IMG/VR virus record: IMGVR_UViG_2541047755_000009
Source of the DNA: a virus
Taxonomy: Duplodnaviria; Heunggongvirae; Uroviricota; Caudoviricetes
DNA length: 40,602 bases
Direction: 5' to 3' (one strand)
In this document: one piece after another, positions 1 to 35,489 of the stretch
Layout of the letters: every line of letters begins with the position of its first letter
How positions within the stretch are numbered: position 1 is the first letter of the stretch
Notes under the pieces: generated by a model
The model's input: the letters and a program-made list of their open reading frames with translations, nothing else
Told to the model about the DNA's origin: nothing
Database searches by the model: none
Program-made: the position numbers and the translations under genes

Positions 1-516
1 ATGAAATTTAAAAAATGTCTTCTGCCTGTGGCAACGTTAGCGTCATTCACTCTGGCAGGATGCCAGTCAAATGCTGATGATCATGCCGCCGATGTTTATC
101 AAACCGATCAACTGAATACCAAACAAGAAACTAAAACCGTTAATATTATTTCCATTCTTCCCGCAAAAGTTGCCGTAGACAACTCCCAAAATAAACGAAA
201 CGCACAAGCCTTCGGCGCGCTTATTGGTGCAGTCGCTGGCGGTGTTATTGGCCACAACGTCGGGTCTGGCAGCAATTCCGGAACGACGGCAGGTGCAGTT
301 GGCGGCGGAGCTGTTGGCGCGGCAGCGGGTTCTATGGTGAATGATAAAACCTTAGTGGAAGGTGTTTCTTTAACGTATAAGGAAGGCACCAAAGTGTATA
401 CCTCCACCCAGGTGGGTAAAGAGTGCCAGTTTACGACAGGTTTAGCCGTTGTTATTACCACGACGTATAACGAAACGCGTATTCAGCCAAATACGAAATG
501 TCCTGAAAAGAGCTAA
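1..516 (+). CDS. lipoprotein with glycine-zipper (SlyB-like) region; probable chromosomal flank
   Basis: ATG at position 1; signal peptide ending in lipobox LAGC; Gly/Ala-rich zipper stretch GALIGAVAGGVIGH; next gene follows 16 nt later. Confidence 0.7.
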   Translation: MKFKKCLLPVATLASFTLAGCQSNADDHAADVYQTDQLNTKQETKTVNIISILPAKVAVDNSQNKRNAQAFGALIGAVAGGVIGHNVGSGSNSGTTAGAVGGGAVGAAAGSMVNDKTLVEGVSLTYKEGTKVYTSTQVGKECQFTTGLAVVITTTYNETRIQPNTKCPEKS

Positions 517-531
517 TGATCAGGAGGAGTC

Positions 532-1071
532 ATGAAGAAAGTTTTTCTTTGCGCCATCTTAGCCTCCTTAAGCTATCCGGCTATCGCCTCATCATTGCAG
601 GATCAACTCTCTGCTGTCGCAGAAGCGGAACAGCAAGGTAAAAATGAAGAGCAAAGGCAGCATGACGAATGGATCGCGGAGCGCAACAGGGAAATCCAGC
701 AAGAGAAGCAACGTCGCGCAAACGCCCAGGCCGCCGCTAACAAAAGAGCGGCAACGGCAGCGGCAAATAAGAAAGCTCGTCAGGATAAACTGGATGCCGA
801 AGCCACTGCGGACAAAAAACGCGATCAAAGTTATGAAGATGAGCTACGCAGCTTAGAGATTCAGAAACAAAAACTGGCGCTGGCGAAAGAAGAAGCCCGC
901 GTTAAGCGCGAAAACGAATTTATCGATCAGGAACTGAAGCACAAAGCTGCGCAAACCGATGTGGTGCAATCTGAAGCTGACGCAAACAGGAATATGACTG
1001 AGGGCGGTCGCGATCTGATGAAAAGCGTGGGCAAAGCAGAAGAGAACAAATCGGACAGCTGGTTTAACTAA
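532..1071 (+). CDS. secreted Lys/Glu/Gln/Ala-rich coiled-coil protein (hypothetical)
   Basis: AGGAGG-type RBS upstream; N-terminal signal peptide; intrinsic terminator downstream. Confidence 0.6.
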   Translation: MKKVFLCAILASLSYPAIASSLQDQLSAVAEAEQQGKNEEQRQHDEWIAERNREIQQEKQRRANAQAAANKRAATAAANKKARQDKLDAEATADKKRDQSYEDELRSLEIQKQKLALAKEEARVKRENEFIDQELKHKAAQTDVVQSEADANRNMTEGGRDLMKSVGKAEENKSDSWFN

Positions 1072-1118
1072 GCGATGTCAGTAACTTCAAGCCTATGATT
1101 CGTGAGTATAATAAATAT

Positions 1119-1142
1119 CCTCCGGCATAGCCGGAGGTTTTT
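1119..1142 (+). terminator. rho-independent terminator of the 532-1071 gene
   Basis: stem CCTCCGGC / GCCGGAGG with loop ATA followed by TTTTT. Confidence 0.7.
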
Positions 1143-1149
1143 CAAATGC

Positions 1150-1862
1150 GCCTATAAGGCTCTCTTACCAGCCGCGCCCTAACAGGCGCACACGATCTGA
1201 CATTTGCATCCAACTTCGTTACTTACGGCCCGTAAACGGGCTGCCCGGATAGGGAATCGATAACTGCTCTCCCATTTTATCCTCTTCAAGCTGGTGCTTT
1301 ATGTAATCCTGTATCTTCGCCGTGTTCTTACCCACTGTATCGACGTAGTACCCTCTGCACCAGAACTCCCTGTTCCTGTATTTGAATTTCAAATCACCAA
1401 ACTGCTCGTAAAGCATCAGACTGCTTTTCCCTTTCAGATATCCCATAAACCCGGATACGCTCATTTTAGGCGGGATCTCCACAAGCATATGGATATGATC
1501 TGCACAGCATTCAGCTTCCAGAATCCGTACGCTTTTCCACTCACACAGCTTTCTCAAAATACTGCCTATTGCTCTACGCTTCTCTCTGTAGAACACCTGT
1601 CTTCGGTATTTTGGCGCAAAAACTATGTGATATTTACAGTTCCATCGGGTGTGCGCTAAGCTCTTTTCGTTCCCCATTGGGACCCCCTTTTGATTTCTTG
1701 TTTGACACTTGCAGTTGCCAGACCGCAAGGTGTTTTAACAAATCAAAAGGGGTTTTAATAACTGGCTCAAAGCTGAAAGCTTTCCGGAACCCCCAGCCTA
1801 GCTGGGGGTTTTCTGTGCACAAAAAACCCTCTGTAGTAACAGAGGGTTTTGTTCATTCATAG
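1150..1862 (-). mobile_element. IS200 (IS200/IS605 family) insertion sequence; ends approximate
   Basis: tnpA with IS200 hallmark; terminator-like hairpin AAAACCCTCTG..CAGAGGGTTTT plus T-run near 1822-1850 on the tnpA strand; RBS-sequestering inverted repeat CCCCTTTTGATTT / AAATCAAAAGGGGG just 5' of the tnpA ATG; about 0.7 kb overall. Confidence 0.7.
1219..1677 (-). CDS. tnpA: IS200 transposase TnpA (Y1/HUH transposase)
   Basis: MGNEKSLAHTRWNCKYHIVFAPKYRR... is the IS200 TnpA N-terminus; HxH motif (HIHML); about 152 aa from the internal ATG at 1677. Confidence 0.9.
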   Translation of the reverse strand: MGNEKSLAHTRWNCKYHIVFAPKYRRQVFYREKRRAIGSILRKLCEWKSVRILEAECCADHIHMLVEIPPKMSVSGFMGYLKGKSSLMLYEQFGDLKFKYRNREFWCRGYYVDTVGKNTAKIQDYIKHQLEEDKMGEQLSIPYPGSPFTGRK

Positions 1863-1999
1863 TGCAGGGTCAAATCATTCCCACTCAATTATTTACGATA
1901 ACCATAACCAATTGAGTGATAACATTTTTCCAAATCTCAATTTTTATCGTACCGTTTTATATACCGTCACCGGAAATCAGTACCATGAAAAATGCCATG

Positions 2000-2482
2000 C
2001 TATCTGGTCAGGGTGTCGTACTGTTTTTCACAGACTCTTCCGGCTTCGGCTGCCCGGTCAGCATACTCTGCCAGTTGTCTGTTTCTCTCGAGAGATTTAC
2101 TGAGCACGTCGGCAAGCAAAACTCCGGTGTCTGCGGCTGACGTCCCAGCGCCGACAATGGCGTTATACTGCCTGAGCTGCTCACGGATGGCAACGAGCTG
2201 TTGCTGCAACCGGCCAGCGCGAGCGGCAGCATCAAGAGCATCATTGCGCGCCTGGTCGATCCTCTGCTGCGCTTCACGTTCATTGATCGCTTTCTCCTGT
2301 TCGTAGTGCTGACGAATTCTCTCATCTTCGGTTTTGCGGTCTTCTTTCGCCTGCGCATACCCGGCGTCGTACTGACGACTGCCGTGTACACTCCAGGCAA
2401 CAACTCCTGATATGACCAGAACAGCAAGCACCGCCATGATAATCAACTGTTTCCGGTATGCTTTTACGAATGCCCAGATCAT
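2000..2482 (-). CDS. Rz: i-spanin Rz
   Basis: N-terminal TM helix then Gln/Ala/Arg-rich coiled coil; ATG overlaps the endolysin stop (ATGA); last gene of lysis cassette. Confidence 0.8.
2008..2244 (-). CDS. Rz1: o-spanin Rz1 lipoprotein embedded in the +1 frame of Rz
   Basis: alternate frame inside Rz encodes [13 protein letters not shown] (lipobox LAGC) followed by a Pro/Ser-rich peptide; start codon chosen by eye. Confidence 0.65.
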   Translation of the reverse strand: MMLLMLPLALAGCSNSSLPSVSSSGSITPLSALGRQPQTPEFCLPTCSVNLSRETDNWQSMLTGQPKPEESVKNSTTP

Positions 2483-3108
2483 ACCGCCAGCACCTTACTG
2501 GCATTGATGTATCGCGCGCGCCGGTCGTCGATGCCGTTCCGGCCACCATTGATAATCAGAGTTACACGTGCAATATCGCCGGTATACTTCATGCATCCTT
2601 TGCTGGCAAAGAACCACGCCGCGCTACGAGCCGCGTATTCGTCCTGCGCCAGCAGTTCAGGACTCTCCAGCAGGTCAACCTTAAGACCGTTTCCACAGTC
2701 ACGATAGTTATTCAAACCGGTAACCTGGATAAGCCCGCGCCCACGGTAGTTCCAGCCATCACCAGGGGCATTGTTCCCCATGCGTTTGCTGTACACCAGA
2801 TTGGCAATCGCTCTCTGGCGCTCAAGTGGCAATGGTGGTTCGCCTGCACGTCGCCCCAATGCGTTGGCCTGTCCCTGAGTGAGACGCCCAGCCCGAACAA
2901 AGTTAGCCAGTCCGCTGACGCTGTAGTTGAAATTCTCCTGCAACCGGGTGAAGCCTCCAGACTCATGCCCGACCTGAGCAATAAACATAGCCTGATCTTC
3001 TGGTTTGCTGATACCAAACTCTTTCATCGCAGAAGTTATATGCGAGAACCAGCGTGCGGCCAGTGCCTCGCTGATACCAGCAGCTCGCTGGAATTGTTTA
3101 ATCTCCAT
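2479..3108 (-). CDS. endolysin, glycoside hydrolase family 19 (chitinase-like)
   Basis: GH19 signatures [10 protein letters not shown] and [15 protein letters not shown]; GAGG RBS 8 nt upstream; no N-terminal TM segment so not a SAR endolysin. Confidence 0.85.
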
Positions 3109-3406
3109 GTTTAGACCTCGATACTTTGAAAATTTGAACGACGTTACCGCGCGTTTTAATAACCGCAGCTAGCATGACAGCGTTGATAATGACCTCAGAT
3201 AAATCCACAGCCATTGGCGTACGTAACCAGATTGCATAGGCGACACGAACAGGAATACTGGCCGCAGCAACAATCAGGAAATAAGCAAGCCATCCTCCCC
3301 ACCTTCGGTGTTGAGAGCCGTTACGCCGGAATGTGACAACGCGAATTGCTATGCCAGTGCAAATAACTGCATTGGTGATAAGCAAAAAAAACTCATGCGT
3401 TACCAT
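3098..3406 (-). CDS. lysis-cassette membrane protein (holin or antiholin candidate)
   Basis: 102 aa with about 3 hydrophobic helices; GGGGAGAAAAG RBS; overlaps both the upstream gene end and the endolysin start. Confidence 0.6.
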
Positions 3407-3797
3407 CGTCTTTTCTCCCCGGAATTAACTCGCGTGGATTATCGGAACGGTGATAGAGCCATATACCAATACGCACAGCGACAATTGCTGACACGAATGC
3501 GCCTGCAGAGAAAACAATCCCTTTTTCAAAAGAGTCCTGCGTGATGGTAGGGATCAGGCTGGCTATGCCGATAAGAATTGATGCTGCTGGTTTGTAAAAG
3601 AGAAGGCCGCAAAGAAAGCTGAGCATCGACAGGAGCACCCGGCGACGGATGGGGTACTCTACTGCAGAGGTAACAAAAATTACCGCTCCAGCCAAAGCAC
3701 CCAAAGCAACCTCAGGAGGAACTCCTGCTATCACCGCCGCCAGAGAACTCATGCTAAGCCACTGATTTAAAGTTTCACTGGTTAGTTGAGCTGACAT
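3393..3797 (-). CDS. multi-TM membrane protein (holin candidate)
   Basis: about 134 aa from ATG at 3797 with GGTGGA RBS (track ORF begins at GTG 3806); about 4 predicted TM helices; immediately upstream of the lysis genes. Confidence 0.55.
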   Translation of the reverse strand: MSAQLTSETLNQWLSMSSLAAVIAGVPPEVALGALAGAVIFVTSAVEYPIRRRVLLSMLSFLCGLLFYKPAASILIGIASLIPTITQDSFEKGIVFSAGAFVSAIVAVRIGIWLYHRSDNPRELIPGRKDDGNA

Positions 3798-3999
3798 GTT
3801 TTCCACCGTTTATATGCATAACAACCTCCTGAACAGTAAAGCATTACGCATAATAAACCATTTATGGTTTTTTGTTACTTTAACATCGTCAATTCCCTGT
3901 TTTTCATGCCGAGAATAAAGCTCACCTTTTACATGACTCTGAAGAAACAAACAGTGAAGAGCAGGTTGAATACCGCACCATTTAATGGCGCGGTAGCAG

Positions 4000-4296
4000 T
4001 CAAATAGAGAAATAAACACAAAAACAAAAAACAACAGGAACAGCAAAATCCAACAGACTTCCCACATCCCACACGCGTGGATCAAAACCTCCCCACCACG
4101 GCATGTTGATACGTTTCCCTTTCCCAAACTTTTCTATCCAGCGATATTCTGCCTGGGTGTGTTCACGCGCAATGAAGAACGTACAACCGGCTATCGCACC
4201 GTAAGCCCAGTTTCCGGTAAAAATACCAACCAGTACCTGAGCCACAAAAGCGCAAAGCGAGTGAAGAAATGGAGTGACATCAATGCTCTTAATCAT
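4000..4296 (-). CDS. small membrane protein translationally coupled to the tailspike (function unknown)
   Basis: ATG overlaps the tailspike stop (tcATGA); GGGGAAG RBS; 98 aa with 2-3 hydrophobic helices; AT-rich. Confidence 0.55.
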   Translation of the reverse strand: MIKSIDVTPFLHSLCAFVAQVLVGIFTGNWAYGAIAGCTFFIAREHTQAEYRWIEKFGKGKRINMPWWGGFDPRVWDVGSLLDFAVPVVFCFCVYFSI

Positions 4297-6482
4297 GAAA
4301 CTTCCCCATTGGTTGAAAATATGGCTCCTCCAACGCCAAGTGTATTTCGTGTTGTGCTCAACCTCAGAGGGCTGGAGTCAGAATTAGAATATCCTGTAGC
4401 AGAAATAAAAGATCCTCCACTAATAGTCAACTGCGGAACATCGGCTATATCTGAATAAGTTCTGTCAGCAACAGTATTATTTATAGCCACATATGATCCA
4501 AAAAAACTTCTTATTGTTTGGTTTTTAACTTTACTTCCTTCAATGGTTATCCTACTACCACAGTCGGCAATAAATCCTGAATCTGCATCCAGCGTTGCAT
4601 TCATAAAAGAAGCTTCAGATCTCTCTACATCAATCCATCTAATATCTTTTGTGGGATTTGCACCAAATACATGACAAATATTAGAGTTAAACCTTACACC
4701 ATCTTGGAGGTGCATTAATTTTTTTATATCTGTACCCCATAGCCTTGGAAAATTAACAGATGCTCCTGCATGGCAATCAAATCCCAGCTCAGCCCCTGAG
4801 ATATCTACAGCCTTTCCTGAAATAACAGCACCAGTGTCTGCATTAACGGCTGTTCCACAATTGCGCATATCATTACCAGCAACATCAACGCAACCCGCAC
4901 CATCAATACGCACACCAAGTGCACATCCATAAAAACCTTTTTCAATATTTGGTTCAAGGACTTTACCACTTGTTTCTGCATCACTTTCTTCAACGTCATG
5001 TCGTCTTGCATCAACATATGCTGTATGAATGCAGGTTAATCCACGATATGAGCAATGTATAGTTTTATGGTCGCGTATATTAACATTTGAACCATCTCTT
5101 ACATTCCATCCTATATAACAATAGCTTGCACTTGACCCCTGAAAATCTGCTTTAACATTATAAATACAATTAACTGACGCAACCGTACTCTCTGTGCACC
5201 GTTCAAACTTGCTTACAGGCATTGATGCCTTGACATTATTTACCAGTTGCAGGGAAGAGTATCTGCTATAAGAAAAATCACATACGTAATACCCTTCTGG
5301 CATATATGCAGCAACACTTTCCTCATCAGGAGCACATCCGGTATGATATGCACTAATTTTTGCACCAAAACTACCATGAATTCCAACGTAGAACTTTCGA
5401 GCACCTGAATACGGATAGAAATTAAGTTCAGCTTTTTGAGTTACAATAAATGCACAAACATCGCTATCATCTCTATTTTCTTCGATCTGAATAGCAAATA
5501 CAGGACTTTTTGCTGCATCGCAAATGTAAAATAAATACTTGTATTCGTAATACGTTCTAACGATTTTAGTAAACAAACGAGTGTCAGAGAAAACCACTGA
5601 GTCTTCTGATGTTATTTTAATCCAAGACAAATCAACACCTGAACTGAATTCAATTTGATAGTTGATAATATGCCCGGTCTTAATTCTTATTTCGCAGAAA
5701 GCATTACCACCATCCCACATAGGTCTCATTGACTGGGCTGCAATGATTGCATCTTTGAGTGTAGGGTAATCACCCCATTCGCCAACAGTAATAACAAAAG
5801 TATAATATGAGTTAAAAACAGCGGCATTTTTGCCTTTGGATATCAACTCCTTAATCATAAAAATATTATCTTCGTAATCACAAGGAGAAATTATATCCCT
5901 CATTTTGCTTTGAAATGTTCGTTGTCTTGCCCCGCTTCCTGACGGTATAAACCAACCAAAACCACCAACAACCCCGGCGATTGCAGCATCGACATAATTA
6001 CGCATTGAGCGATTATTTACAGCGTCCTGCTCAAATGATGGATCTGCAAGGTTAGAAATTTTGTTTTGCTTTGCATCGTAATATTTTGCAAGCAAAGATG
6101 GTTTCATCAATGCACGTCTGAACCACCCAAAACATCGCTGGATCAGCATCGTCAGGTAGTCAAATGCATCTTCATGAACTTCGGGGAAAAATTTTCCCTG
6201 ATTGCGAAGATCAGTCTCCTGCACCACATCAAGCACACGCTCTATCGTAATTCGCCAGCCAGCAGCAAGCGGCGACGGGAGAACCACTTCACCGCCACTA
6301 TAAGTGCCCGCTCCAGTTACCTTATAACCGGTATCCAGAACCAATTCTGTTACGTTCCCGTTCAGGTCAGACACCTGAACAACCAGGTCGGTTTTTTTGA
6401 AAATACGGAAGGTATACGGAAATGATGTCGTAACGCCGTTACCGGTGTATTCGTTGTGGTCAACTTCGGTTGAGACCGTCAT
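4293..6482 (-). CDS. tailspike with epsilon15-gp20-like N-terminal particle-binding domain
   Basis: N-terminus MTVSTEVDHNEYTGNGVTTSFPYTFRIFKK...HEDAFDYLTMLIQ matches the conserved epsilon15-type tailspike head-binding module as I recall it; long Gly/Asn/Ser/Thr-rich C-terminal part typical of beta-helix receptor-binding domains. Confidence 0.8.
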   Translation of the reverse strand: MTVSTEVDHNEYTGNGVTTSFPYTFRIFKKTDLVVQVSDLNGNVTELVLDTGYKVTGAGTYSGGEVVLPSPLAAGWRITIERVLDVVQETDLRNQGKFFPEVHEDAFDYLTMLIQRCFGWFRRALMKPSLLAKYYDAKQNKISNLADPSFEQDAVNNRSMRNYVDAAIAGVVGGFGWFIPSGSGARQRTFQSKMRDIISPCDYEDNIFMIKELISKGKNAAVFNSYYTFVITVGEWGDYPTLKDAIIAAQSMRPMWDGGNAFCEIRIKTGHIINYQIEFSSGVDLSWIKITSEDSVVFSDTRLFTKIVRTYYEYKYLFYICDAAKSPVFAIQIEENRDDSDVCAFIVTQKAELNFYPYSGARKFYVGIHGSFGAKISAYHTGCAPDEESVAAYMPEGYYVCDFSYSRYSSLQLVNNVKASMPVSKFERCTESTVASVNCIYNVKADFQGSSASYCYIGWNVRDGSNVNIRDHKTIHCSYRGLTCIHTAYVDARRHDVEESDAETSGKVLEPNIEKGFYGCALGVRIDGAGCVDVAGNDMRNCGTAVNADTGAVISGKAVDISGAELGFDCHAGASVNFPRLWGTDIKKLMHLQDGVRFNSNICHVFGANPTKDIRWIDVERSEASFMNATLDADSGFIADCGSRITIEGSKVKNQTIRSFFGSYVAINNTVADRTYSDIADVPQLTISGGSFISATGYSNSDSSPLRLSTTRNTLGVGGAIFSTNGEVS

Positions 6483-6585
6483 GTTAAATCTCCAGATAGT
6501 CGCAGCACCCGTTGCGCCGCATATCTGGTTATTCTATTACCTGTAAAACCACATATGGATAGAAAGACTGTAAATACGAATAGAT

Positions 6586-6602
6586 ATTACCTTTCAGGTA
6601 AT
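6586..6602. promoter_or_regulatory. operator-like palindrome ATTACC-TTTCA-GGTAAT (site A)
   Basis: perfect 6+5+6 inverted repeat abutting a TTGCAA -35-like hexamer upstream of the 6678 gene. Confidence 0.55.
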
Positions 6603-6640
6603 TTGCAAAACGTGCTGGATAGCAAACAAATTATTTGATA

Positions 6641-6656
6641 CTGTATAAATATACAG
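6641..6656. promoter_or_regulatory. LexA (SOS) box
   Basis: taCTGTataaatatACAGtt, i.e. CTGT-N8-ACAG with AT-rich spacer, near-perfect to the enterobacterial LexA consensus; about 20 nt upstream of the GGAGAAG RBS / ATG at 6678. Confidence 0.8.
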
Positions 6657-6677
6657 TTATTGCATGGAGAAGATAAG

Positions 6678-6935
6678 ATGCAGCAGTATCACTATCCACT
6701 GGAAGACGGATTTACCGAAAGGATTCACACGCCGGGAGGCGTCAGGTCACTGGTGGAGGGATCGCACTTGATGAAATTACTCCGGGATCTCGATAAGGAT
6801 GGATTTAATGTCGATGGCCCACTTGCCGAACTGACTGCACTGATTAACTACGTCACCAGCTCACAGATGTCTATGCGGGATCTGCAAACACATCTCGACT
6901 ATTGTGCCGAACAATTACGAAAACAAACCAGATAA
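6678..6935 (+). CDS. small antirepressor-like protein (stand-alone copy of the Bro-N protein C-terminal domain)
   Basis: 85 aa; RBS GGAGAAG; about 75 aa align with the C-terminus of the 7249-7935 product (LMKLLRDLDKDGFNVDGPLAELT...RDLQTH versus LLMNLLNQLQEDGHDVSGAAAELT...RDIQTH). Confidence 0.65.
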   Translation: MQQYHYPLEDGFTERIHTPGGVRSLVEGSHLMKLLRDLDKDGFNVDGPLAELTALINYVTSSQMSMRDLQTHLDYCAEQLRKQTR

Positions 6936-6965
6936 GGTTTGCAATTGCCAAGTGGAGTGCTTATA

Positions 6966-6982
6966 TTTACCTTTGCGGTAAA
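6966..6982. promoter_or_regulatory. operator-like palindrome TTTACC-TTTGC-GGTAAA (site I) inside a GGAGTGC / GCACTCC hairpin
   Basis: same half-site family; sits in the 310-nt untranslated gap between the two antirepressor-like genes. Confidence 0.45.
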
Positions 6983-7248
6983 TTTACATCGCACTCCTCT
7001 TGTGCCATAGTAATCGGGCACTGGCAAAATCCAGTGCCGGGATTGGCGTCCCGAGTTACTACAGAGGCACATATGCCGCATAAGCGGTTTTTTTTATGTG
7101 TAAAGCGCACCTATTCTATGGTGGGCTGTGTGGGGGCACCGAAAGGTGCGCCGGGTCCTTTGTAGCCGGTTACGCCAACCCTGCACAGTTCACCACCAAC
7201 CGATTGGCGTCGGTAGTGGTGATTAACCTAACTACAAAGGTGATCACT

Positions 7249-7935
7249 ATGACTGCTAACGTAACCCCATCTGTTTTTCATTTTGAATCAGAAGCAACCA
7301 TTCGAGCCATTGTTATTGATGGAAATCCTTGGTTTGTTGCCAAAGACGTTATTAAAGCTCTTCAACTGACAAACCCCACTATGTCAATAAAATCTCTTGA
7401 TGATGATGAAAGGGCTAAATTTAACTTAGGCCGTCAAGGCGAAACCAATATTATCAACGAGTCAGGCCTCTACACACTGATCCTCCGCTGCCGCGATGCA
7501 GTAACACCAGGCACTATCCCCTACCGCTTTCGCAAATGGGTTACAGGTGAGGTTCTTCCTCAGATCCGCCGCACCGGAAGTTACATTAAAAACTCGCTCC
7601 CGCAGGAAGAACGCATAAAGATGGTTGCCGACCAGGTTGCAAACGCCACAGCATCAGCAGTGATGCAGGCAATGAAGATAGAGAACAAAACCTACAGCGC
7701 CCCACTGAAGCCCGGCTACCGCAGCCTGATTCATTCGCCGTCTGGTGTTCTCGGCCTGACGGAGAACTCACTGCTGATGAATTTGCTGAACCAGTTACAG
7801 GAAGACGGGCATGACGTATCGGGCGCGGCGGCGGAGCTGACTACCATGTTCTGCTACATCGTCGGTGTGAGCAAATGCCTGCGTGATATCCAGACGCACG
7901 CGGAGTACATCAACGACAAGGCAGGGTTCTTCTGA
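7249..7935 (+). CDS. phage antirepressor with Bro-N domain
   Basis: Bro-N signature IRAIVIDGNPWFVAKDVIKALQL; AAGGTGA RBS before ATG 7249; C-terminal domain shared with the 6678 gene. Confidence 0.8.
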   Translation: MTANVTPSVFHFESEATIRAIVIDGNPWFVAKDVIKALQLTNPTMSIKSLDDDERAKFNLGRQGETNIINESGLYTLILRCRDAVTPGTIPYRFRKWVTGEVLPQIRRTGSYIKNSLPQEERIKMVADQVANATASAVMQAMKIENKTYSAPLKPGYRSLIHSPSGVLGLTENSLLMNLLNQLQEDGHDVSGAAAELTTMFCYIVGVSKCLRDIQTHAEYINDKAGFF

Positions 7936-7946
7936 CAGAACGGCGG

Positions 7947-7972
7947 CACAGGGATGTGCCTTTAAATAATTC
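7947..7972 (+). terminator. terminator-like hairpin after the Bro-N gene
   Basis: GGCACA-GGGA-TGTGCC followed by TTTAAATAATT. Confidence 0.45.
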
Positions 7973-8007
7973 TGTACAGATTGCAGACCGGGGGTGAATA
8001 GCGTACT

Positions 8008-8024
8008 ATTACCTTAAAGGTAAA
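8008..8024. promoter_or_regulatory. operator-like palindrome ATTACC-TTAAA-GGTAAA (site B) with promoter-like TTGCAG / TACTAT hexamers
   Basis: sits between a putative -10 and the GAGGAGG RBS of the 8050 gene. Confidence 0.5.
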
Positions 8025-8049
8025 CCATGTGTTTACATGAGGAGGAGAT

Positions 8050-8259
8050 ATGGGATTTTGGTTCGCTCGTACAAAAACGAGGGATAATGCACCCAGCCCT
8101 CAGGCAAAAAATGCAGAAGTTCCGGCGTCAGCGCAGGTTAACAAGCGTGGTGGTGTGTATATCTCATCACAGCAAATTTCTGAGCTTCCTGAGGTTAAGG
8201 AGATGCGTCGTCTCGCTGCTGCAATCGTTAAACAGGATCTTGCCACTGTAAGGAAATAG
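8050..8259 (+). CDS. hypothetical small hydrophilic protein, first gene of accessory cassette
   Basis: strong RBS GAGGAGG then ATG; 69 aa; stop TAG overlaps the GTG start of the next gene (taGTG). Confidence 0.6.
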   Translation: MGFWFARTKTRDNAPSPQAKNAEVPASAQVNKRGGVYISSQQISELPEVKEMRRLAAAIVKQDLATVRK

Positions 8260-9125
8260 TGTTGTTAGCTCTTCTAATTATCCCCATTCTGGTTAGTGGT
8301 TATATTATGATAACCGCTAACCAGTATCATTATTTCCGTTTATACCGACATGAAGGCCAGCTTCTTTATATGAAAGTAGCTGCATTAGGTACATATTGCC
8401 TTGTTGCTTCGGTAATAATTGCCGCATTTATAAAATATAAATATCCTGATTTTCACCTAGTTCACGATATGGTGGAAACTTTTAATGTAACGTCAAAACC
8501 AGAAACAGATAGAATTTACATGTGGCTGCTTCTTCTCTCAGCCACATCCATTTGCTTCTCTTTGTGTTATGTGTCTGTTGTGTGGGTGAAAGATTTTCTT
8601 CTTGGTTGTTTTTATAAACGTGATATTTATGAGCAAAAAACAGAGGCAATGAAGGCCAGAGTACTGCGAAAAACTTACTCGCAAGGTTCTTTAGACTTAC
8701 TATTGCTTGATGCTATTGAATCGGATCCTAAACGACCAATGCTGATTACTTTATCATCAAACAAAGTGTATGTTGGAATAATAAATGGTTCTGGTGAACC
8801 AACGGAAAATCAGGGTCCGCATCAGCACATATCTTTTGTTCCTTTAATGTCAGGATACAGGAACAAAGACAACTTATCTGTCACATTCACTAATGCTTAT
8901 CCAGGAGAAATACAGGTCAAGCGGACTGCAGCAATAAGAGGAATTAGCAGAAAGAAAGTGCCAGGACTTGAGATCATGGTGTCTATTGACGAAATAAGTT
9001 ATATATCATGGTTTGATTTTGAAGTATATAAAGCAACAAATAACAAAGTAGAATCCAGGGGGCACGTTATTCGTGTTACCAAAAATGGAAGAAATATATA
9101 TCAAAGAAATAGCAAAAAAGAATAG
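8259..9125 (+). CDS. membrane-anchored protein, 3 N-terminal TM helices plus about 180-aa soluble domain (unknown function; exclusion/defense candidate)
   Basis: 288 aa; GTG start coupled to upstream stop; visibly AT-rich codon usage unlike the neighbouring phage genes; intrinsic terminator directly downstream. Confidence 0.65.
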   Translation: MLLALLIIPILVSGYIMITANQYHYFRLYRHEGQLLYMKVAALGTYCLVASVIIAAFIKYKYPDFHLVHDMVETFNVTSKPETDRIYMWLLLLSATSICFSLCYVSVVWVKDFLLGCFYKRDIYEQKTEAMKARVLRKTYSQGSLDLLLLDAIESDPKRPMLITLSSNKVYVGIINGSGEPTENQGPHQHISFVPLMSGYRNKDNLSVTFTNAYPGEIQVKRTAAIRGISRKKVPGLEIMVSIDEISYISWFDFEVYKATNNKVESRGHVIRVTKNGRNIYQRNSKKE

Positions 9126-9146
9126 CCCGCGCTGCGGGCTTTTTTG
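9125..9146 (+). terminator. rho-independent terminator of the accessory cassette
   Basis: GCCCGC-gct-GCGGGC followed by TTTTTTG. Confidence 0.7.
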
Positions 9147-9217
9147 TGGACGAAACAAAAGCCAGTGCTACACTCATTGACGCCACATTGAGGTGGCTTA
9201 TAGATGGAAATTTCACA

Positions 9218-9379
9218 ATGAAAAAAGCATTTGCTGCACTGTTCGTTTTGTTGTCTCTGGTAGCTTCAACTCAGGCCTTTGCCGGTCGTTGTCAGCACGA
9301 CAGCGATACTGCCGCTGACGGCTCCCGCTGCGGTGGGCGTTCTGCGGATTCCCGCCCGGGTGGCGGTGGCATTCGTTAA
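9218..9379 (+). CDS. small secreted Cys-containing peptide (hypothetical)
   Basis: MKKAFAALFVLLSLVASTQAFA signal peptide then about 30 aa Gly/Arg/Asp-rich; start chosen at the internal ATG of track ORF 9146-9379. Confidence 0.35.
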   Translation: MKKAFAALFVLLSLVASTQAFAGRCQHDSDTAADGSRCGGRSADSRPGGGGIR

Positions 9380-9401
9380 AAACAAGGCCGCGAAAGCGGC
9401 C
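9380..9401 (-). terminator. terminator at the end of the minus-strand late operon
   Basis: GGCCGC-tttc-GCGGCC followed on the minus strand by TTGTTTTT. Confidence 0.6.
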
Positions 9402-9402
9402 T

Positions 9403-9414
9403 GTGACATGTCAC
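9403..9414. repeat. 12-bp perfect palindrome GTGACATGTCAC, copy 1 of 3
   Basis: identical 12-mer also at 26972-26983 and 29237-29248. Confidence 0.8.
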
Positions 9415-9707
9415 GTCCCTTTTCTGAATGATAGCCATTCGAAAAATGATGACATTCCACCGCAGACAATAGCAAAGATGATCCCACCAAAGAAGAGAAG
9501 GCCAGCCTGCCACCACTCCCACCGCCATACATCCACAGCGCCAACCATACCAACAATCGCTCCAACAAATGGAATATAGCTCACGATGAAAGCAATGGGG
9601 GCTGCAATTATCCAGTGCAATCCCCACCATGATTCAAGCCCAGCCATAATTGCTGCCAACTGAAAAAGACCAACGACGATATAAACAATGAATCCTATAG
9701 CTTGCAT
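9411..9707 (-). CDS. Trp-rich small membrane protein (about 3 TM helices), function unknown
   Basis: 98 aa; ATG start; last gene of the minus-strand operon before the terminator. Confidence 0.55.
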   Translation of the reverse strand: MQAIGFIVYIVVGLFQLAAIMAGLESWWGLHWIIAAPIAFIVSYIPFVGAIVGMVGAVDVWRWEWWQAGLLFFGGIIFAIVCGGMSSFFEWLSFRKGT

Positions 9708-9719
9708 GTAGTCACCTAT

Positions 9720-9893
9720 TTACCCAGTAAAAATAAGAGGCCTCCCCTCAATAAGGCTTGCAACAAGAACTACTCCCTGCACAACAAAGATGAACCAGCA
9801 AATAGCTTGAGTCTGAGGGTTAAGAAAATATTTGTAGCGGTCAATAAATAACAATACACCAGAAATTATCACACTCAAAATAATTAAAAACAC
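9720..9893 (-). CDS. possible 57-aa hydrophobic peptide (GTG start)
   Basis: not in ORF track; AAGGAAG motif 4 nt before GTG; two hydrophobic segments; directly precedes the 9411-9707 gene. Confidence 0.3.
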   Translation of the reverse strand: MFLIILSVIISGVLLFIDRYKYFLNPQTQAICWFIFVVQGVVLVASLIEGRPLIFTG

Positions 9894-9902
9894 AACACTT
9901 CC

Positions 9903-12377
9903 TTATTGCGGAGTGACATCCTGAGGTCGCCACCAGTATGTCTGGTTAAACTCTTTCTTCGAACGTTGCTCCATTTTACGCAAATAGCCTGGTGAAAAAT
10001 ACTCCTGCATCTGGTTAAAGATCATGTGATCGAGAGCCGCCTTCAAGTACCAGAGATTCGCACCAGGCATCAAACCTTTCCCCAGCTTCACCAGATCACC
10101 ACCAGTCTGCTCACTCTTCCCTTCCACAGCATTTAACGGTATGCCCTGAGCAATCTTCACTACGTCATCAACTAGACCAGCTACCGGGCCAAGCATCGAC
10201 GCCAGCGCGCCGCTTCCGTACCTAGTGTGATCTGACAATAAAAAGTCACCGTAAAGGCCAAGACCACCACCTTTCAGTAGAGCACCAAGCCAGAATTTTG
10301 CGGCATCTTCTCCTGTCATCTCTCGAGGATTACGACCAGACGCAAGGTCGTTAAGTTGTTGCGACAAAGCGCCAAGAATGGTCGTACTGGCAATAAACGT
10401 CGCAATATATGCCGCACGCCCACCAGCAGACGGCATACCCATAGCGCGTGACCAGTGACGCATAACAACCGAGATAGGGAACGATTTAAACAGGAAAACA
10501 CTTCTCGTTAATTCACCTTTCCATGTTCCACGCTGAATACCAGAACCGGTTATCAGTTGCTCACGTGCTCCCGGTGTAATAACAGCCATATCAACTTCTT
10601 CAGTTACGGCACCGAGCAGTTTACGCATTGCCTCAAATTTCACGCGTTCAGGCTCACCAAGATGTTTAACTGCTGAATCAGGGATACGCATAATGCTTTC
10701 CGGTGTCAGCATCGTATTATTACCGTTCCCCCAGTCCTCCTGTTGCGCCAACTTCCATACGCTCCAGTCTGTGTCAGTAATCCCTTTGCTTTTCAGGATA
10801 CGAAAATCAGAGTCATCGAGGCGACGAAGGTCTGGTGTCCGTGACACTACTTCTCCCAGGCTTCCCATCATGGTTACGCCATAGGCGCGCTTGTGCGCAT
10901 CTGACCATGCTGTAAGCCCACTGGCACGCATTACCGCCGTTGCAGCCCAACGAGACACAGACGGCCCCATATTATCCATCGCCCAGCGGTTAACGCTGCC
11001 AAGTAGAGATTCCATCGCCAGACCAGCGCGGCGCGCCCGCGCAAGTTCTGTACGGTTCGTTGGGTCCATAGCTTCAAGCTGGTTGCGGAATAACTGGTTC
11101 ATTGGAAGGTTGGTAACCTTCGCAGACAGATACATGGTTCCAAGATCAGAGAACGATGACAGCAACGCGGATCCGAGTCTGCTGGCAACCAGCCAGTTGC
11201 GGATATTGTCAGACCATCGCGCGATGTGCGGATTCGCTACAGGCTGTGTCTTTCCGGAAATAAAGTTGTACAGATTCTCTGTGTTGTTCGCCAGCCGCTC
11301 GACTTTACCGGTTTTACTCGGGTTAGCTGTTGCCGTTTCTGCCTTCACCTGATCAAGAAGAGAGCGGAAAACATGATCGGGGTTTGGACCATATGTTTCC
11401 ACCAGTGCAATATCTTTACTGATACCTTCCAGGTGACCGACCATGATTTCCCATAGAGAGCGATCGCCATAAAGTTGCTGATATTGCAGATAGGAATCTG
11501 CATCTTTGAAATGTATCTGTCGTGATGCATTACCACGGTTAGCACGTGCGCCGGAAATTCGCATTCCGGTATCAGTAAGCTTATTCAGCCCACCAGTAGC
11601 GATCGTGTTATAAGCCTCTCCAAGAAATGCAGACAACTCGGCATCGTTCATCAGTTGTCCATCGGCTCGGGTATAATATTTGCGATCCAGCTTACCTATA
11701 ACATCGCTAACCCATTTATCTTTTGATACCGCCCCAACCTTTTCCATAGAATGATGTTGAGGGATCCCCCAGTTTTCGAGATAGCCAATGTCCCCACCAG
11801 CATCATTAAACCGGCGGCGCAGTAGCTCTGTCACTTCTCTCCACGCCTTAGCACCTTTTCTTGCTTTAGCATTGCCAGTATTTTGCCCCCGCATTTCATA
11901 TACCAGGTCACGTACGCCCGCTTCATCTTCAAACAGACCAAAAAAGCGAGGATCAACTGCTTCGAATGCCTCCTGCAATTGACTCAATGCATAATCACGG
12001 GTGGCTTTTGTTCTGGATTCAACAGAGAGGAAATTCGATTTACCGTCTGCATTAAAAGCAATAGTACGGTTAAGAGCGCCAAGTTTCCCATCAGCCCCTT
12101 GATAGCTATTGATAAATTTATCCAATCTCTGACGTGCGGCTATAGTGAGGGCCACACGACGTTTCTTTAATGCCGCTTCTCGCTGTAATTCTTCAGATGC
12201 CAATTGTGCTGCACGATACAGCCGCTCTGATTCGGAAAGTTGTCGCCACGACATCGGGTCATCACGAGCAATGGAGCGCATATTTCGATAAATGCGGTCT
12301 TCAATGTTCTGTATTTCTCGCGCCGTTAACGTGCGCTGCGCCGCCTGCTGGACCGCTTGTATACATTCCTGTCTCAT
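9903..12377 (-). CDS. large virion protein (internal/ejection or tail protein)
   Basis: 824 aa in the late structural operon; position analogous to podovirus ejection proteins; no motif recognised. Confidence 0.55.
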   Translation of the reverse strand: MRQECIQAVQQAAQRTLTAREIQNIEDRIYRNMRSIARDDPMSWRQLSESERLYRAAQLASEELQREAALKKRRVALTIAARQRLDKFINSYQGADGKLGALNRTIAFNADGKSNFLSVESRTKATRDYALSQLQEAFEAVDPRFFGLFEDEAGVRDLVYEMRGQNTGNAKARKGAKAWREVTELLRRRFNDAGGDIGYLENWGIPQHHSMEKVGAVSKDKWVSDVIGKLDRKYYTRADGQLMNDAELSAFLGEAYNTIATGGLNKLTDTGMRISGARANRGNASRQIHFKDADSYLQYQQLYGDRSLWEIMVGHLEGISKDIALVETYGPNPDHVFRSLLDQVKAETATANPSKTGKVERLANNTENLYNFISGKTQPVANPHIARWSDNIRNWLVASRLGSALLSSFSDLGTMYLSAKVTNLPMNQLFRNQLEAMDPTNRTELARARRAGLAMESLLGSVNRWAMDNMGPSVSRWAATAVMRASGLTAWSDAHKRAYGVTMMGSLGEVVSRTPDLRRLDDSDFRILKSKGITDTDWSVWKLAQQEDWGNGNNTMLTPESIMRIPDSAVKHLGEPERVKFEAMRKLLGAVTEEVDMAVITPGAREQLITGSGIQRGTWKGELTRSVFLFKSFPISVVMRHWSRAMGMPSAGGRAAYIATFIASTTILGALSQQLNDLASGRNPREMTGEDAAKFWLGALLKGGGLGLYGDFLLSDHTRYGSGALASMLGPVAGLVDDVVKIAQGIPLNAVEGKSEQTGGDLVKLGKGLMPGANLWYLKAALDHMIFNQMQEYFSPGYLRKMEQRSKKEFNQTYWWRPQDVTPQ

Positions 12378-26315: not shown

Positions 26316-26392
26316 GTGGCATTAGCTCAGTTGGACAGAGCAACCGCCTTCTAAGCGGTTGGTCGCAGGTTCGAATCCTGCATGCCACGCCA
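26316..26392 (+). tRNA. tRNA-Arg, anticodon UCU (reads AGA)
   Basis: 77 nt cloverleaf: acceptor GTGGCAT / ATGCCAC, D-stem GCTC / GAGC with A20, anticodon stem ACCGC / GCGGT, loop CTTCTAA, T-arm GCAGG-TTCGAAT-CCTGC, G73, encoded CCA. Confidence 0.9.
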
Positions 26393-31438: not shown

Positions 31439-32010
31439 TGGTTGCCTCCTTTGCGAAGCTGAGCGGCTAACTCGTCACATATGTGCGTCAAAGCGCAAAG
31501 TTGGATTGCTGGGTGTTCGCGCACCATCTCAACCCCCTGCGCCCGTACTTCAGCCAGGAAAGCATCGATGGCTGGGTGCTCTGTCTGGCTATGCATTACC
31601 CATTCAGATAAGTACTCGAAGCAACGGCGAAACTCCTGCCAATCACTGCACATGTTTAGGTTTCCGCCTTCACACTCGAACTGGTAATTCTCTAAACGGT
31701 CTGCAAACGCCCTGCCATTCTCGATGGCACCAAGTGGAGCATCAGATTTCAGCCAAGCATTCTCCGCCACCAGCGCTGAAAACTTCTCGTGTGCCAACTT
31801 AACAGCCGAATCAGCCTGCTTAATTGACTCAATCGCTTTCTGCTGGTCTTCGGCCAGCGCATTAGCACGCGCCAGTTGCACTTCCAGTTGCGTTGCCAAA
31901 TCGCTGATCAGCTTTGCCACACTGCGCATATCAACGGCACCACATTCTGCTTTCAGTTCCGAAGCCATCTCATGCCCGGCGGCAACTAACCCTTTGATAT
32001 TACTTTCCAT
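31435..32010 (-). CDS. coiled-coil early protein (Ea22-like family, tentative)
   Basis: 191 aa; ATG start; overlaps the downstream gene start. Confidence 0.45.
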   Translation of the reverse strand: MESNIKGLVAAGHEMASELKAECGAVDMRSVAKLISDLATQLEVQLARANALAEDQQKAIESIKQADSAVKLAHEKFSALVAENAWLKSDAPLGAIENGRAFADRLENYQFECEGGNLNMCSDWQEFRRCFEYLSEWVMHSQTEHPAIDAFLAEVRAQGVEMVREHPAIQLCALTHICDELAAQLRKGGNQ

Positions 32011-32071
32011 CTTTACCCTCGCTTATCCACATAACTTATTGATTACATTGATAACTAAAAAGATCGTCGAT

Positions 32072-32416
32072 TCAGAACTCTTCGATGTTCCAGCCACCAC
32101 CTGCTTTCTTTGGTTTAACCGTTACCCCGATGATTCGGAACGGATACTGATCTGCGGCGACTTTGGTTTTCACCCTGGCGTCGTCGGTCCAGAAACCTTT
32201 CACTTCGTGCAGTTCCATCTCGCCGGTGACGAGCATCACAGCGAAATCGGGCGTATAGAACGTGTTGTCAGCTAACCGCAGCTTGATACCCTCGAATCGA
32301 TACCAGGCGATTTCCCCTGCACGTTTACGCTGCTCAAGGTGCTGGCAATACGCAGATTCTGTTTTGTTCATCTGGCCTGTTTTGAGTCGACCAAGAGCCT
32401 GTATCTGTTTTCTCAT
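32072..32416 (-). CDS. small PD-(D/E)XK nuclease-like protein
   Basis: 114 aa with YTPDF...MELHEVKG arrangement compatible with a D...E-x-K nuclease core. Confidence 0.4.
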   Translation of the reverse strand: MRKQIQALGRLKTGQMNKTESAYCQHLEQRKRAGEIAWYRFEGIKLRLADNTFYTPDFAVMLVTGEMELHEVKGFWTDDARVKTKVAADQYPFRIIGVTVKPKKAGGGWNIEEF

Positions 32417-32418
32417 GA

Positions 32419-32497
32419 TTTACCTCTGAGGTAATTAAAAACCACATAAGACACTAAATCAATAGAATTTAGAATATTTTGTTACCCAATAGGTAAC
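32419..32497. promoter_or_regulatory. two operator-like palindromes (TTTACC-TCTGA-GGTAAT and GTTACC-CAATA-GGTAAC) in the gap after the P-like gene
   Basis: sites J and H; the second is a perfect 6+5+6 palindrome. Confidence 0.5.
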
Positions 32498-32533
32498 TAT
32501 CGAGGCGTAAAAAAATGCGCTATCGCGCTGGTA

Positions 32534-33334
32534 TTACTTGATAAATCCTGCCGCCTTTCCCCGCCTGTATTCCTCCATCAGCCACTGCGCCGGTGTTATT
32601 CCCCCAAGGGTGGCGGCGTTAGGCATGCACCCGAAACTTCGCCCTGGCGGGTGGTAAACGTCTCTCCCTGTGTCCGGAGGTGTACTCATGGGTTCTGGCT
32701 TTGCCTGTATGCTGATCACCGGATCGGGTATCTGCTGTCCGGAAGCCACCTTTTTCGCCCAATCATCGAGCAGCCTGCGCGCGTGTTTCTCAACCTCAAT
32801 CTCGCTAAGCTGGCGCTGATACATTGCACGGCGGGTATCACATACGACCCAGTACATAACCGGATGTCGCCACGGGAATCTTTCGGGACCGCCAGGATAT
32901 AAACTTTTTTCCTTGCTGTACCGGTGAAACTCCGCCATCACATCGTCAATGGTGACGCCAAGAACCATCTTGCTGTCTTTGCACCACTTGATGAATTGCC
33001 CTGGCGACGGCCAGAACGGAGATTCACTGGCGCGGGCGTGGCGCATACCAGCAGAAACCTGTTCACGGGTTCGGATCCCCCCTTCGGCAAACGCAGCAAT
33101 CCACTGCTGTTTTGCAGCAACTTCCTGCTCTGGCGTCTTCAGGTTGGTTACCACTGCCGCCGGAAACAGTTGTTTCAGCTGTTTAAAAAGGGCATCAACA
33201 AGCCTCTCTGCTGACATGTTCACCACATTGTCATTGTTGACGTATTGATGCTCATAACCTGACATGCGAGAAAGGGCTTCTCCGTCACGGTTTTGTATCG
33301 CGGTAAAAACGTTGTTCACAAGAAATCCTCCCAT
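32534..33334 (-). CDS. replication protein P-like helicase loader
   Basis: segment IRTREQVSAGMRHARASESPFWPSPGQFIKWCK parallels lambda P (MEQVNAGMRVARRQNRPFLPSPGQFVAWCRE). Confidence 0.8.
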   Translation of the reverse strand: MGGFLVNNVFTAIQNRDGEALSRMSGYEHQYVNNDNVVNMSAERLVDALFKQLKQLFPAAVVTNLKTPEQEVAAKQQWIAAFAEGGIRTREQVSAGMRHARASESPFWPSPGQFIKWCKDSKMVLGVTIDDVMAEFHRYSKEKSLYPGGPERFPWRHPVMYWVVCDTRRAMYQRQLSEIEVEKHARRLLDDWAKKVASGQQIPDPVISIQAKPEPMSTPPDTGRDVYHPPGRSFGCMPNAATLGGITPAQWLMEEYRRGKAAGFIK

Positions 33335-34131
33335 GCTTCAGGGCTGTTCCAGTGCGGAACGTTGTTATCAGGTAATGTTGATTGCTTCTGTCTGCTAATC
33401 TGCAGCCGCCTTGCCAGCTTCTGCTCCCACTGTGCCTGATGGTATGCCTTACCCTCAGCCATCCAGTAAATTCTGAACTCTGCAAGTTCCTGTGCCGTTG
33501 GCAGACTGTCCAGGTAGATCCCCTGCAATGAGCTTTTCCGAAGAAAGTCATCTGATGGCTGCCATTGTTCATGCATGACAAATTTGCCTAATTGCCCTGG
33601 CCCACCAGGAGGAACAAAGTTATTCATCACGGCGTTGTTTGCGCCGGGGTCATGAGGCACAGAATCCCCGCTTTTTGTCCTGCTCTCCCTCTCTTGGTTA
33701 AATGACTGGTTATATGACTGGTTCTGGATCCCGTTTTTGGGATCATTCAACATCCCGTTTTTGGGATCATTCAACATCCCGTTTTTGGGTATATTCCCTT
33801 TTTCGGTAACATTACCGTTTTCGGGTTCATTGCCCCCCTCTCGGTTGCCTTTAATGTTCCCGTTTTTGGTTATATTAAGAGAGAAAACCCGCACTCTTTT
33901 TGTCGCTCCCTTTCTCTCCCCGGTATCTGAAATAAGCCCCATTTTCATGAGCGATATAAGTCCGGCCTGCACGGTTTTTTTATTCAGGCAAGTGTCTTTA
34001 ACGAGGCGTTCTATGCTGGGGTAGCAGAGGTTATATTCATCGGCTCTGTCAGCCATCGAGAGCAGTATGAGCTTTAATGACGAGCTACCTGGATCTGTCT
34101 CCCAGGCCCAATCTGTTGCATGTCTGCTCAT
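33316..34131 (-). CDS. replication initiator O-like protein containing the ori iterons
   Basis: N-terminal HTH-like region; central repeated peptide NGNV..KNGMLNDPKNGMLNDPKNG encoded by DNA iterons; directly upstream of the P-like gene with overlap. Confidence 0.65.
   Translation of the reverse strand: MSRHATDWAWETDPGSSSLKLILLSMADRADEYNLCYPSIERLVKDTCLNKKTVQAGLISLMKMGLISDTGERKGATKRVRVFSLNITKNGNIKGNREGGNEPENGNVTEKGNIPKNGMLNDPKNGMLNDPKNGIQNQSYNQSFNQERESRTKSGDSVPHDPGANNAVMNNFVPPGGPGQLGKFVMHEQWQPSDDFLRKSSLQGIYLDSLPTAQELAEFRIYWMAEGKAYHQAQWEQKLARRLQISRQKQSTLPDNNVPHWNSPEAWEDFL
33725..33875. repeat. origin-of-replication iterons (4-6 copies of ATCCCGTTTTTGGGAT-type palindromic repeats)
   Basis: near-identical repeats with roughly 24-bp periodicity inside the O-like gene, as in lambda ori. 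Confidence 0.7.
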
Positions 34132-34146
34132 GATTAATCTCCGCTA

Positions 34147-34383
34147 TCAGCTTGAATGTTGTGGGGAGGAATTAATCATGATCTGCTTAATCTCTGCCCT
34201 GATACGACGGTTTGATTCCATGGTGCACTCAACACAGTGTCCGTTGTAAACCCAGCGTTCACTGTCATGTCCGTGCTTACATGTTTTTCCGGTGTAGTAG
34301 CGTTTAAGTCCGCGCTTTGCGGCATCAATACGTGTAATGATTTCCATGGTAAGCCCTGTTATTAGTATTGGGATTACGGTCAT
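34147..34383 (-). CDS. small zinc-ribbon protein (CxH...CVEC), function unknown
   Basis: Cys/His cluster; start ambiguous (ATG at 34383 or 34347; track begins at TTG 34410). Confidence 0.4.
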   Translation of the reverse strand: MTVIPILITGLTMEIITRIDAAKRGLKRYYTGKTCKHGHDSERWVYNGHCVECTMESNRRIRAEIKQIMINSSPQHSS

Positions 34384-34426
34384 TTTGTGCTGACACAAAA
34401 AAAATATCAACCAGATTTGGTTTTTT

Positions 34427-34442
34427 ATTACCTTTGAGGTAC
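34427..34442. promoter_or_regulatory. operator-like site ATTACC-TTTGA-GGTAC (site D) downstream of the Cro-like gene
   Basis: one mismatch in the right half-site. Confidence 0.4.
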
Positions 34443-34497
34443 GAATAGATATGAAAAGACCGCCGGGTGGCGGTCTACAGAGGGTTGTAGCTGGATA

Positions 34498-34728: not shown

Positions 34729-34763
34729 AGCTATTGCCTGATATTTATTTCAGATAATAAATA

Positions 34764-34828
34764 TTCACCCATAAGGTAACAAAAATCAAGGATAGTTACC
34801 TATGAGGTGCATTTACCTGTTGGGTAAT
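34764..34828. promoter_or_regulatory. immunity-region operators (three sites) with divergent promoters
   Basis: TTCACC-CATAA-GGTAAC, GTTACC-TATGA-GGTGC and TTTACC-TGTTG-GGTAAT within the 154-nt gap; on the cro strand a TTGTTA-N17-TATTAT promoter-like pair overlaps the first site. Confidence 0.65.
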
Positions 34829-34882
34829 ATTGCTTTAAATTGAATCATCTACTGATTCATATATGAGGCGATTTTCCAGAAA

Positions 34883-35467: not shown

Positions 35468-35489
35468 AATCATATTTTTCAGTAAGTAA

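Follow-up and report, generated by a model that had tools for sequence, protein, structure and literature searches.

The window, by which we mean the whole stretch of 40,602 nt that was analysed, opens with two genes of the E. coli chromosome. The first, yfgH (1-516, plus strand), was assigned from Pfam and from the RefSeq annotation of identical DNA; the second, yfgI (532-1071, plus strand), is the chromosomal gene to the left of an insertion sequence (IS), is annotated in RefSeq and matches Pfam DUF5384 with E=9e-62. They are followed by an IS200C element on the minus strand (1110-1820, 711 bp), by the native bidirectional terminator of yfgI and guaA (1821-1850), and by a 17-bp attachment (att) core at 1873-1889, which is the prophage/chromosome junction. 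A phage-derived att arm (1890-1999) extends from the core to the Rz-like gene.

On its sequence, the prophage is of the phiV10/epsilon15 type (Uetakevirus), integrated at the 3' end of guaA, and it has nucleotide matches to phiV10, epsilon15 and ZX5. The major phiV10-type genes are all full length, and the structural, lysis and replication ORFs follow phiV10 in order and size. Next to the arm lies the last lysis gene, which codes for an Rz-like spanin (2000-2482, minus strand; Pfam DUF2514, E=1.9e-41; named likewise in the phiV10/epsilon15 annotation). A full-length P4-type tyrosine integrase of 416 aa (39352-40602, minus strand; Pfam Arm-DNA-bind_3, Phage_int_M and Phage_integrase) reaches the right edge of the window, at the opposite end of the prophage, where the preliminary description of this DNA had placed it. 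An 82-aa ORF (37857-38105, plus strand), putatively of the AlpA family, is a candidate excisionase or regulator, a family and function suggested by its syntenic position: phiV10 has an 82-aa AlpA-family gene (p36) there, and the syntenic 82-aa gene of the relatives gives a weak Phage_AlpA match.

Like the other Uetakevirus prophages at guaA (phiV10, epsilon15, vB_EcoP_ZX5), the window prophage has the same 17-bp core, the order lysis cassette - attP - int, and a P4-type integrase with an arm-binding domain; the genome is about 38.9 kb, as measured from core to core in a relative. It differs from other guaA prophages as a mosaic variant in which the tailspike (4293-6482) and the early-region modules are its own; 64-89% of its length is common to these prophages, at ~97-98% identity.

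Identity and bounds of the IS200C element

The tnpA gene (1219-1677, minus strand) encodes a 152-aa Y1 HUH transposase that matches Pfam Y1_Tnp with E=3.8e-38 and 130.7 bits (cutoff 23). Both hallmarks of a Y1 transposase are present, the HUH motif as HIH at residues 61-63 and the catalytic tyrosine as Tyr125; the Y125F substitution gives a catalytically dead IS200 mutant (PMC4513863). In genomes whose DNA is identical, the protein is WP_000526135.1.

We recovered the IS200 left-end/5'UTR structure (Rfam RF01405, STnc490) at full length on the minus strand at 1687-1810, with 146.4 bits (gathering 56). The bidirectional terminator hairpin of the left end (LE), which corresponds to IS200 nt ~12-34, was located at 1788-1810 by inverted-repeat and fold analysis, and the 5'UTR stem-loop that sequesters the SD (IS200 nt 69-138) occupies 1684-1752 on the minus strand, with a fold of -19.9 kcal/mol and z = -6.3. 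These hairpin positions agree with the published layout specific to the IS200 LE, which has the terminator at nt 12-34 and the stem-loop at nt 69-138 (PMC4513863; the LE terminator also in PMC5435999). The right end (RE) carries a hairpin at 1114-1142 (stem 1119-1137), with T5 behind it on the plus strand, a feature found in all IS200C copies examined, and a second, imperfect palindrome at 1147-1190 (DNA fold z = -4.2). A promoter scan over 900-2200 detected nothing.

The element was aligned to IS200-free alleles, as the preliminary description had suggested, and these alleles together with other IS200C copies fix both ends, thus giving a span of 1110-1820 with the LE at 1820, the RE at 1110 and no target-site duplication. 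In K-12 (L003) and in L107, a lysogen that has this flank but no IS, the site is uninterrupted: GAGTAT runs directly into AAAAAACCC or, in a longer reading across the empty site, into AAAAAACCCTCTG, so that the two alleles restore the site exactly. The termini were the same in 8 of 8 scorable IS200C copies at unrelated loci, all of which start with GTGCACAG (LE) and end in GGATATTTATT (RE); a ninth locus (L024) was left out of scoring as a degenerate copy in which the LE anchor is absent. Neither end of the element (GTGCACAG at the start, ATATTTATT at the finish) is an inverted repeat of the other. Subterminal hairpins at both ends, and insertion without duplication with the LE against a short specific target, are as expected for the IS200/IS605 family.

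The IS DNA of the window is 99-100% identical to copies annotated as IS200C in hundreds of E. coli genomes, and by sequence the element is an ordinary, intact IS200C belonging to the IS200 group of the IS200/IS605 family. Apart from size and insertion site it shows no substantive difference from IS200C/IS200 as known from Salmonella IS200, for which 707 bp is quoted (PMC4513863) against 711 bp here, and from Yersinia IS1541. Common to all are a single tnpA (Y1 HUH, Tyr125), the LE terminator hairpin, the SD-sequestering 5'UTR stem-loop and the RE hairpin, together with the lack of terminal inverted repeats and of a target duplication. IS200 has been described as nearly dormant in transposition (PMC4513863).

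An intact IS200 with tnpA and its characteristic hairpins had been proposed from the letters alone, and this reading holds. The span of 1119-2000 assigned to it does not, because 1821-2000 is not IS DNA; that stretch comprises the native terminator, the last guaA codons with the att core, and the phage arm. The IS had further been placed between the terminator of the flanking gene and the last lysis gene. The lysis gene does follow on the right, but the hairpin at 1119-1137 belongs to the RE of the IS, and the native terminator lies on the other side of the element. As a candidate yfgI terminator, the 1119-1137 hairpin was rejected on the ground that it sits inside every IS200C copy.

The native terminator (hairpin 1823-1850, fold z = -6.3) has the same sequence in IS-free K-12 and, in strains without the IS, terminates yfgI as well as guaA. 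Its T6 tract, on the minus strand at 1821-1826, abuts the LE and is the target of the insertion. The whole IS is on the chromosomal side of the prophage junction, between yfgI and the native yfgI/guaA terminator.

The attachment core and the two prophage ends

The att core, AATCATTCCCACTCAAT (the reverse complement of attgagtgggaatgatt), occurs once in the window. Read on the minus strand, 1875-1889 supply the final four codons of guaA (IEWE) and its stop. Prophage-free chromosomes match the window up to 1889, past which they go on into guaA, and matches to free Uetakevirus genomes (phiV10, epsilon15, ZX5 and others) start at 1873. The same 17 bp have been proven experimentally to be the attP/attB core of phiV10, epsilon15 and vB_EcoP_ZX5 (PMC9782041), which phage DNA carries 190 bp 5' of int and host DNA at the guaA 3' end; the exact match at 1873-1889 to this published core is the mark of a Uetakevirus prophage at guaA. 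It falls within the AT-rich stretch 1862-2000 (GC 36%, vs 49% for the whole window), in which the preliminary description had expected it.

From 1890 onward the phage arm agrees with free phage genomes, and an inverted repeat (1882-1895 / 1905-1918) spans the border of core and arm. HEMP4 (OR424387.1) is 100% identical to the window over 1873-2600. It was considered as a free phage and rejected: the record is an unannotated UNVERIFIED_ORG entry that extends from one core to the other, with 110 bp of guaA included. HEMP4 is, to judge by its sequence, prophage-derived, and it offers no evidence of excision.

The preliminary description had set the IS at the junction of prophage and chromosome, and suggested that it may have disrupted or displaced the att site, which could lock the prophage in place; on this reading the IS landed in or beside the att site of a prophage already resident, whose excision would then be blocked. 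Near the junction it certainly is, at the very end of the prophage and only 52 nt from the core, and this closeness is what speaks for locking; at the junction it is not. The whole native terminator lies between the two, the core, which is intact, falls outside the element, and the host bases from the IS to the core are identical to those of IS-free alleles. Since the core and the adjoining 52 nt of host DNA are untouched, the IS would not be expected to affect either integration or excision. A P4-type integrase that requires more than 52 nt of host flank is formally possible, and is argued against by the repeated occupancy of the IS-flanked site described below.

The second att copy lies beyond the window, a point that also leaves room for locking: the last base of the window belongs to the integrase start codon, so the second core must lie outside. 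We therefore read the far end in relatives. The identical integrase protein is indexed in 2513 assembly-collection blocks, of which 10 places were examined, and at 9 of these 10 loci the core stands at the guaA end, ~190 nt upstream of int (int being 192 nt from guaA). In each of four complete genomes examined that have both the IS and a prophage (4/4), two cores were found, 38.9-40.0 kb apart. The closest relative, KE700619.1 (L097), has its second core at the window equivalent of 40793-40809, 190 nt past the integrase start. Over 1-11482 this relative equals the window in every base (100% identity), and over 31852-40602 the alignment shows 0 mismatches and one gap; between these two segments its prophage is, going by record coordinates, ~850 bp shorter. 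Identity over 20000-40602 was not found in any complete RefSeq E. coli genome; in IAI39 (L094) the encoded RecT is identical, with DNA that is only 98.6% identical.

From these very close relatives, the far att end of the window prophage is probably intact as well. The comparison of both prophage ends for direct repeats, which had been put forward as a check, was made in the relatives, where two intact cores were seen; the window itself holds one. Intact direct repeats outside the IS, combined with normal excision, had been named as evidence that would speak against a damaged att site; on the sequence side, such repeats are what the relatives have.

Cryptic or "grounded" prophages, which have lost att, int or xis, resemble the window prophage only superficially, in having a mobile element at the prophage end. 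Unlike them, it retains an intact att core, int, AlpA-family ORF, and morphogenesis and lysis genes, and the IS interrupts no phage or att sequence; neither interruption nor deletion was found in the core, the arm or int. The lack of decay in int and in the structural and lysis genes likewise argues against locking. Excision of the window prophage would be expected to be functional, and lysogens of ZX5, which occupies the same site, spontaneously release 10^7 PFU/mL (PMC9782041).

The IS and the prophage across E. coli genomes

Population counts were drawn from 5426 complete E. coli genomes. The yfgI-guaA insertion is a lineage-specific allele, and its yfgI/IS junction is present in 131 of them. 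In 107 genomes the IS, terminator, core and guaA are contiguous, that is, an empty attB stands next to the IS; in 22 the IS, terminator and core are followed by the phage arm. The arrangement terminator-core-phage arm, with the IS present or absent, occurs in 550 genomes. Lysogeny next to the IS is not depleted (16.8% vs 10.0%, odds ratio 1.8, uncorrected for phylogeny).

The 1872-bp flank from yfgH to the core has 0 mismatches to the window in four other IS-bearing lysogens. The five prophages next to this identical flank, that of the window and these four, are common over only 64-89% of their length and differ in tailspikes and integrase alleles; both cores are intact in the four whose two ends are sequenced. 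Because the flank is identical and yet the mosaic prophages differ, with two intact cores in each of the four, the att site next to the IS has probably recombined repeatedly. Part of the prophage diversity could be due to recombination with superinfecting phages. Prophages of the same tailspike type are found both with the IS (L106, L110-112) and without it (L107, L108).

These counts speak against the idea that the prophage is locked. Beside the same insertion stands an empty attB in 107 genomes and a prophage in 22, and five distinct prophages have it as their neighbour. That the IS acts directly on excision is formally possible but unlikely; we regard disruption or displacement of att with consequent locking as very improbable.

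The IS might also have come with the phage, as cargo inserted near attP. IS200C does lie inside some phage or prophage records (Lambda_ev058, PhiR63_2) and in a phage-like plasmid (L025). Here, however, it is on the host side of the core, where free Uetakevirus genomes, matching only from 1873 on, have no counterpart; the identical insertion is found in the 107 prophage-free genomes, and the same type of phage occurs without it in L107 and L108. The probability that the prophage brought the IS in is very small.

The order of the two events could, in principle, have been the reverse of the one we prefer, with the IS inserted after lysogenisation, the empty sites left when prophages later excised precisely, and the diversity of prophages due to re-lysogenisation or recombination. 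Presence/absence counts taken alone are compatible with this order, and the T-tract of the terminator is available as a target in lysogen and non-lysogen alike. It is less parsimonious, however, in that the empty site is the majority state (107/131) and the flank is identical throughout, and we consider it highly unlikely. It needs precise excision to account for the 107 empty sites and therefore also contradicts locking; both orders of events are at odds with a locked prophage.

The reading that we favour, and hold to be very probable, is that two independent and known mobile elements became neighbours by chance between yfgI and guaA, and that the IS leaves att untouched. IS200C is inserted directly 3' of the T-tract of the guaA terminator, with its LE facing the terminator and tnpA co-oriented with guaA. 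The phage has entered at the 17-bp core, which takes in the final four guaA codons and the stop, through recombination by its tyrosine integrase. Such integration leaves the original guaA tail, the terminator and the IS at the left end, and guaA is rebuilt at the other end with a phage-borne tail and terminator. One old IS insertion would then have been followed by repeated integration, and probably loss, of prophages at the adjoining attB. The IS allele is a lineage marker that, most likely, is older than the lysogenisation.

Target choice of IS200 and significance of the locus

As a side observation, the IS200 lineage almost always lands directly after intrinsic terminators. A GC-rich hairpin and a T-run lie against the LE in the window copy and in 8 of 8 further scored E. 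coli IS200C copies. We then scanned for the LE sequence in one genome per species, which gave 58 distinct flanks from other Enterobacterales (Kluyvera, Citrobacter, Phytobacter, Brenneria, Serratia, Scandinavium and others). In 57/58 the flank folds at -8 kcal/mol or below and has at least 4 T in its last 5 nt; the median MFE of the LE flanks was -17.3 kcal/mol, vs -5.7 kcal/mol in shuffles. The T-run 5' of the LE at these 57 sites is mostly TTTTT, and also TTATT, TTGTT or TTCTT. A co-oriented ORF ends 31-145 nt upstream at 43 of 54 sites, and in the window the stop codon of guaA lies 54 nt upstream of the IS.

The location of the IS at the guaA terminator thus reflects the target preference of the IS itself and is unrelated to the phage. 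Insertion at a hairpin and T-run without duplication fits the single-strand "peel and paste" transposition of the IS200/IS605 family. We tentatively suggest, as a possibility that we would not yet call likely, that targets are chosen by structure, as the single-stranded terminator (GC-rich hairpin plus T-tract) on the sense strand, or lagging-strand template, of a co-oriented gene, with the AAAA of the LE guiding the element to the T-run. IS608 and ISDra2 offer an analogy, on which the AAAA run 5' to the LE hairpin could pair with the T-run. In K-12, guaA is a minus-strand gene at 2.63 Mb; with this placement the lagging-strand template would be the tnpA-sense strand, and IS200C may accordingly target ssDNA on that strand. 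An explicit statement on the target choice of IS200/IS1541 was not found in the literature searched.

As a discovery the locus carries limited weight, for both elements are already known, the one as an annotated IS200C copy and the other as a prophage at a published att site. Its use lies in the corrected bounds of the IS, the native terminator, the att core and the phage arm, and in a clear negative for the idea of an IS-locked prophage. In practice, the yfgI-guaA IS200C allele can serve as a marker that tags a lineage with turnover of prophages at guaA. The pattern of terminator targeting accounts for the harmless intergenic position of IS200 copies, and would be worth a short dedicated analysis if it is undescribed. 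If targets are indeed chosen by structure, IS200 would be a systematic "terminator follower" that then supplies a bidirectional terminator of its own; this would explain its position at the guaA terminator.

Terminator exchange at guaA and a possible alternative integration site

We found that integration at the 3' end of guaA swaps terminators. A phage-borne guaA-like terminator adjoining attP comes to stand behind guaA in the lysogen, while the native guaA terminator, AACCCTCTGTTACTACAGAGGGTTTTTT (within 1821-1872), is placed behind the phage lysis operon after integration. The phage copy reads AACCCTCTGTTTTTGCAGAGGGTTTTTG in the closest relative, L097 (scaffold KE700619.1), at about 12190-12300, equivalent to about 40700-40810 of the window. 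Its loop differs between relatives. Because the stems of the phage-borne and native terminators are near-identical, their sequences suggest an old homology that would reach past the 17-bp att core (1873-1889).

In one genome, L011 (CP195580.1, about 5790-6000), an identical integrase and phage arm were observed at another chromosomal site, near ydbH. The core is shared only in part there, AGTGGGAATGATT, and this junction looks like integration at a secondary site or else a rearrangement.

Terminators and an sRNA match at IS200 copies

A hairpin resembling an intrinsic terminator, followed by a T-run, lies almost always directly 5' of copies of the IS200 lineage, with the upstream gene co-oriented. 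This placement was seen for the window copy of IS200C (hairpin and T-run at 1821-1850), for all 8 other scored E. coli IS200C copies, and at 57 of 58 IS200-lineage flanks from other Enterobacterales; a co-oriented ORF ended 31-145 nt upstream of the copy at 43 of 54 sites. The loci behind this pattern were window 1821-1850 and comparison loci L004, L005, L020-L025 and L026-L092.

Within IS200C, the stretch that matches Rfam STnc490 (1687-1810) takes in the left-end terminator hairpin and reads in the sense direction of tnpA (minus strand). The art200/STnc490 RNA has been described as antisense to the tnpA 5'UTR (PMC4513863), and the strand of the Rfam model may need care when it is set against that of the biological sRNA.

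RNA genes and variation among guaA prophages

Rfam models placed isrK (7018-7094, plus strand) and C4 antisense RNA (7114-7200, plus strand) in tandem where a 279-aa ORF (7096-7935) starts. The isrK/C4 region (7018-7200) resembles the immI antirepressor control module of the P1/P7 type, and relatives carry BRO-N or antirepressor genes at the corresponding region. The prophage also bears a tRNA-Arg gene with anticodon TCT (26316-26392, plus strand) that is conserved among related guaA prophages.

In a few genomes an extra IS, either IS1414 or an IS3-family element, interrupts the yfgH-IS200C-prophage region and splits the sequence match to the window. Tailspike genes were quite different between guaA prophages sharing the IS-bearing chromosomal background (4293-6482 in the window, and relatives L002 and L017-L019), with annotations that range from GH28-related protein and SGNH/GDSL hydrolase to two unrelated hypothetical proteins. 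Such differences on the same chromosomal background indicate that receptor specificity turns over at one locus among the guaA prophages.
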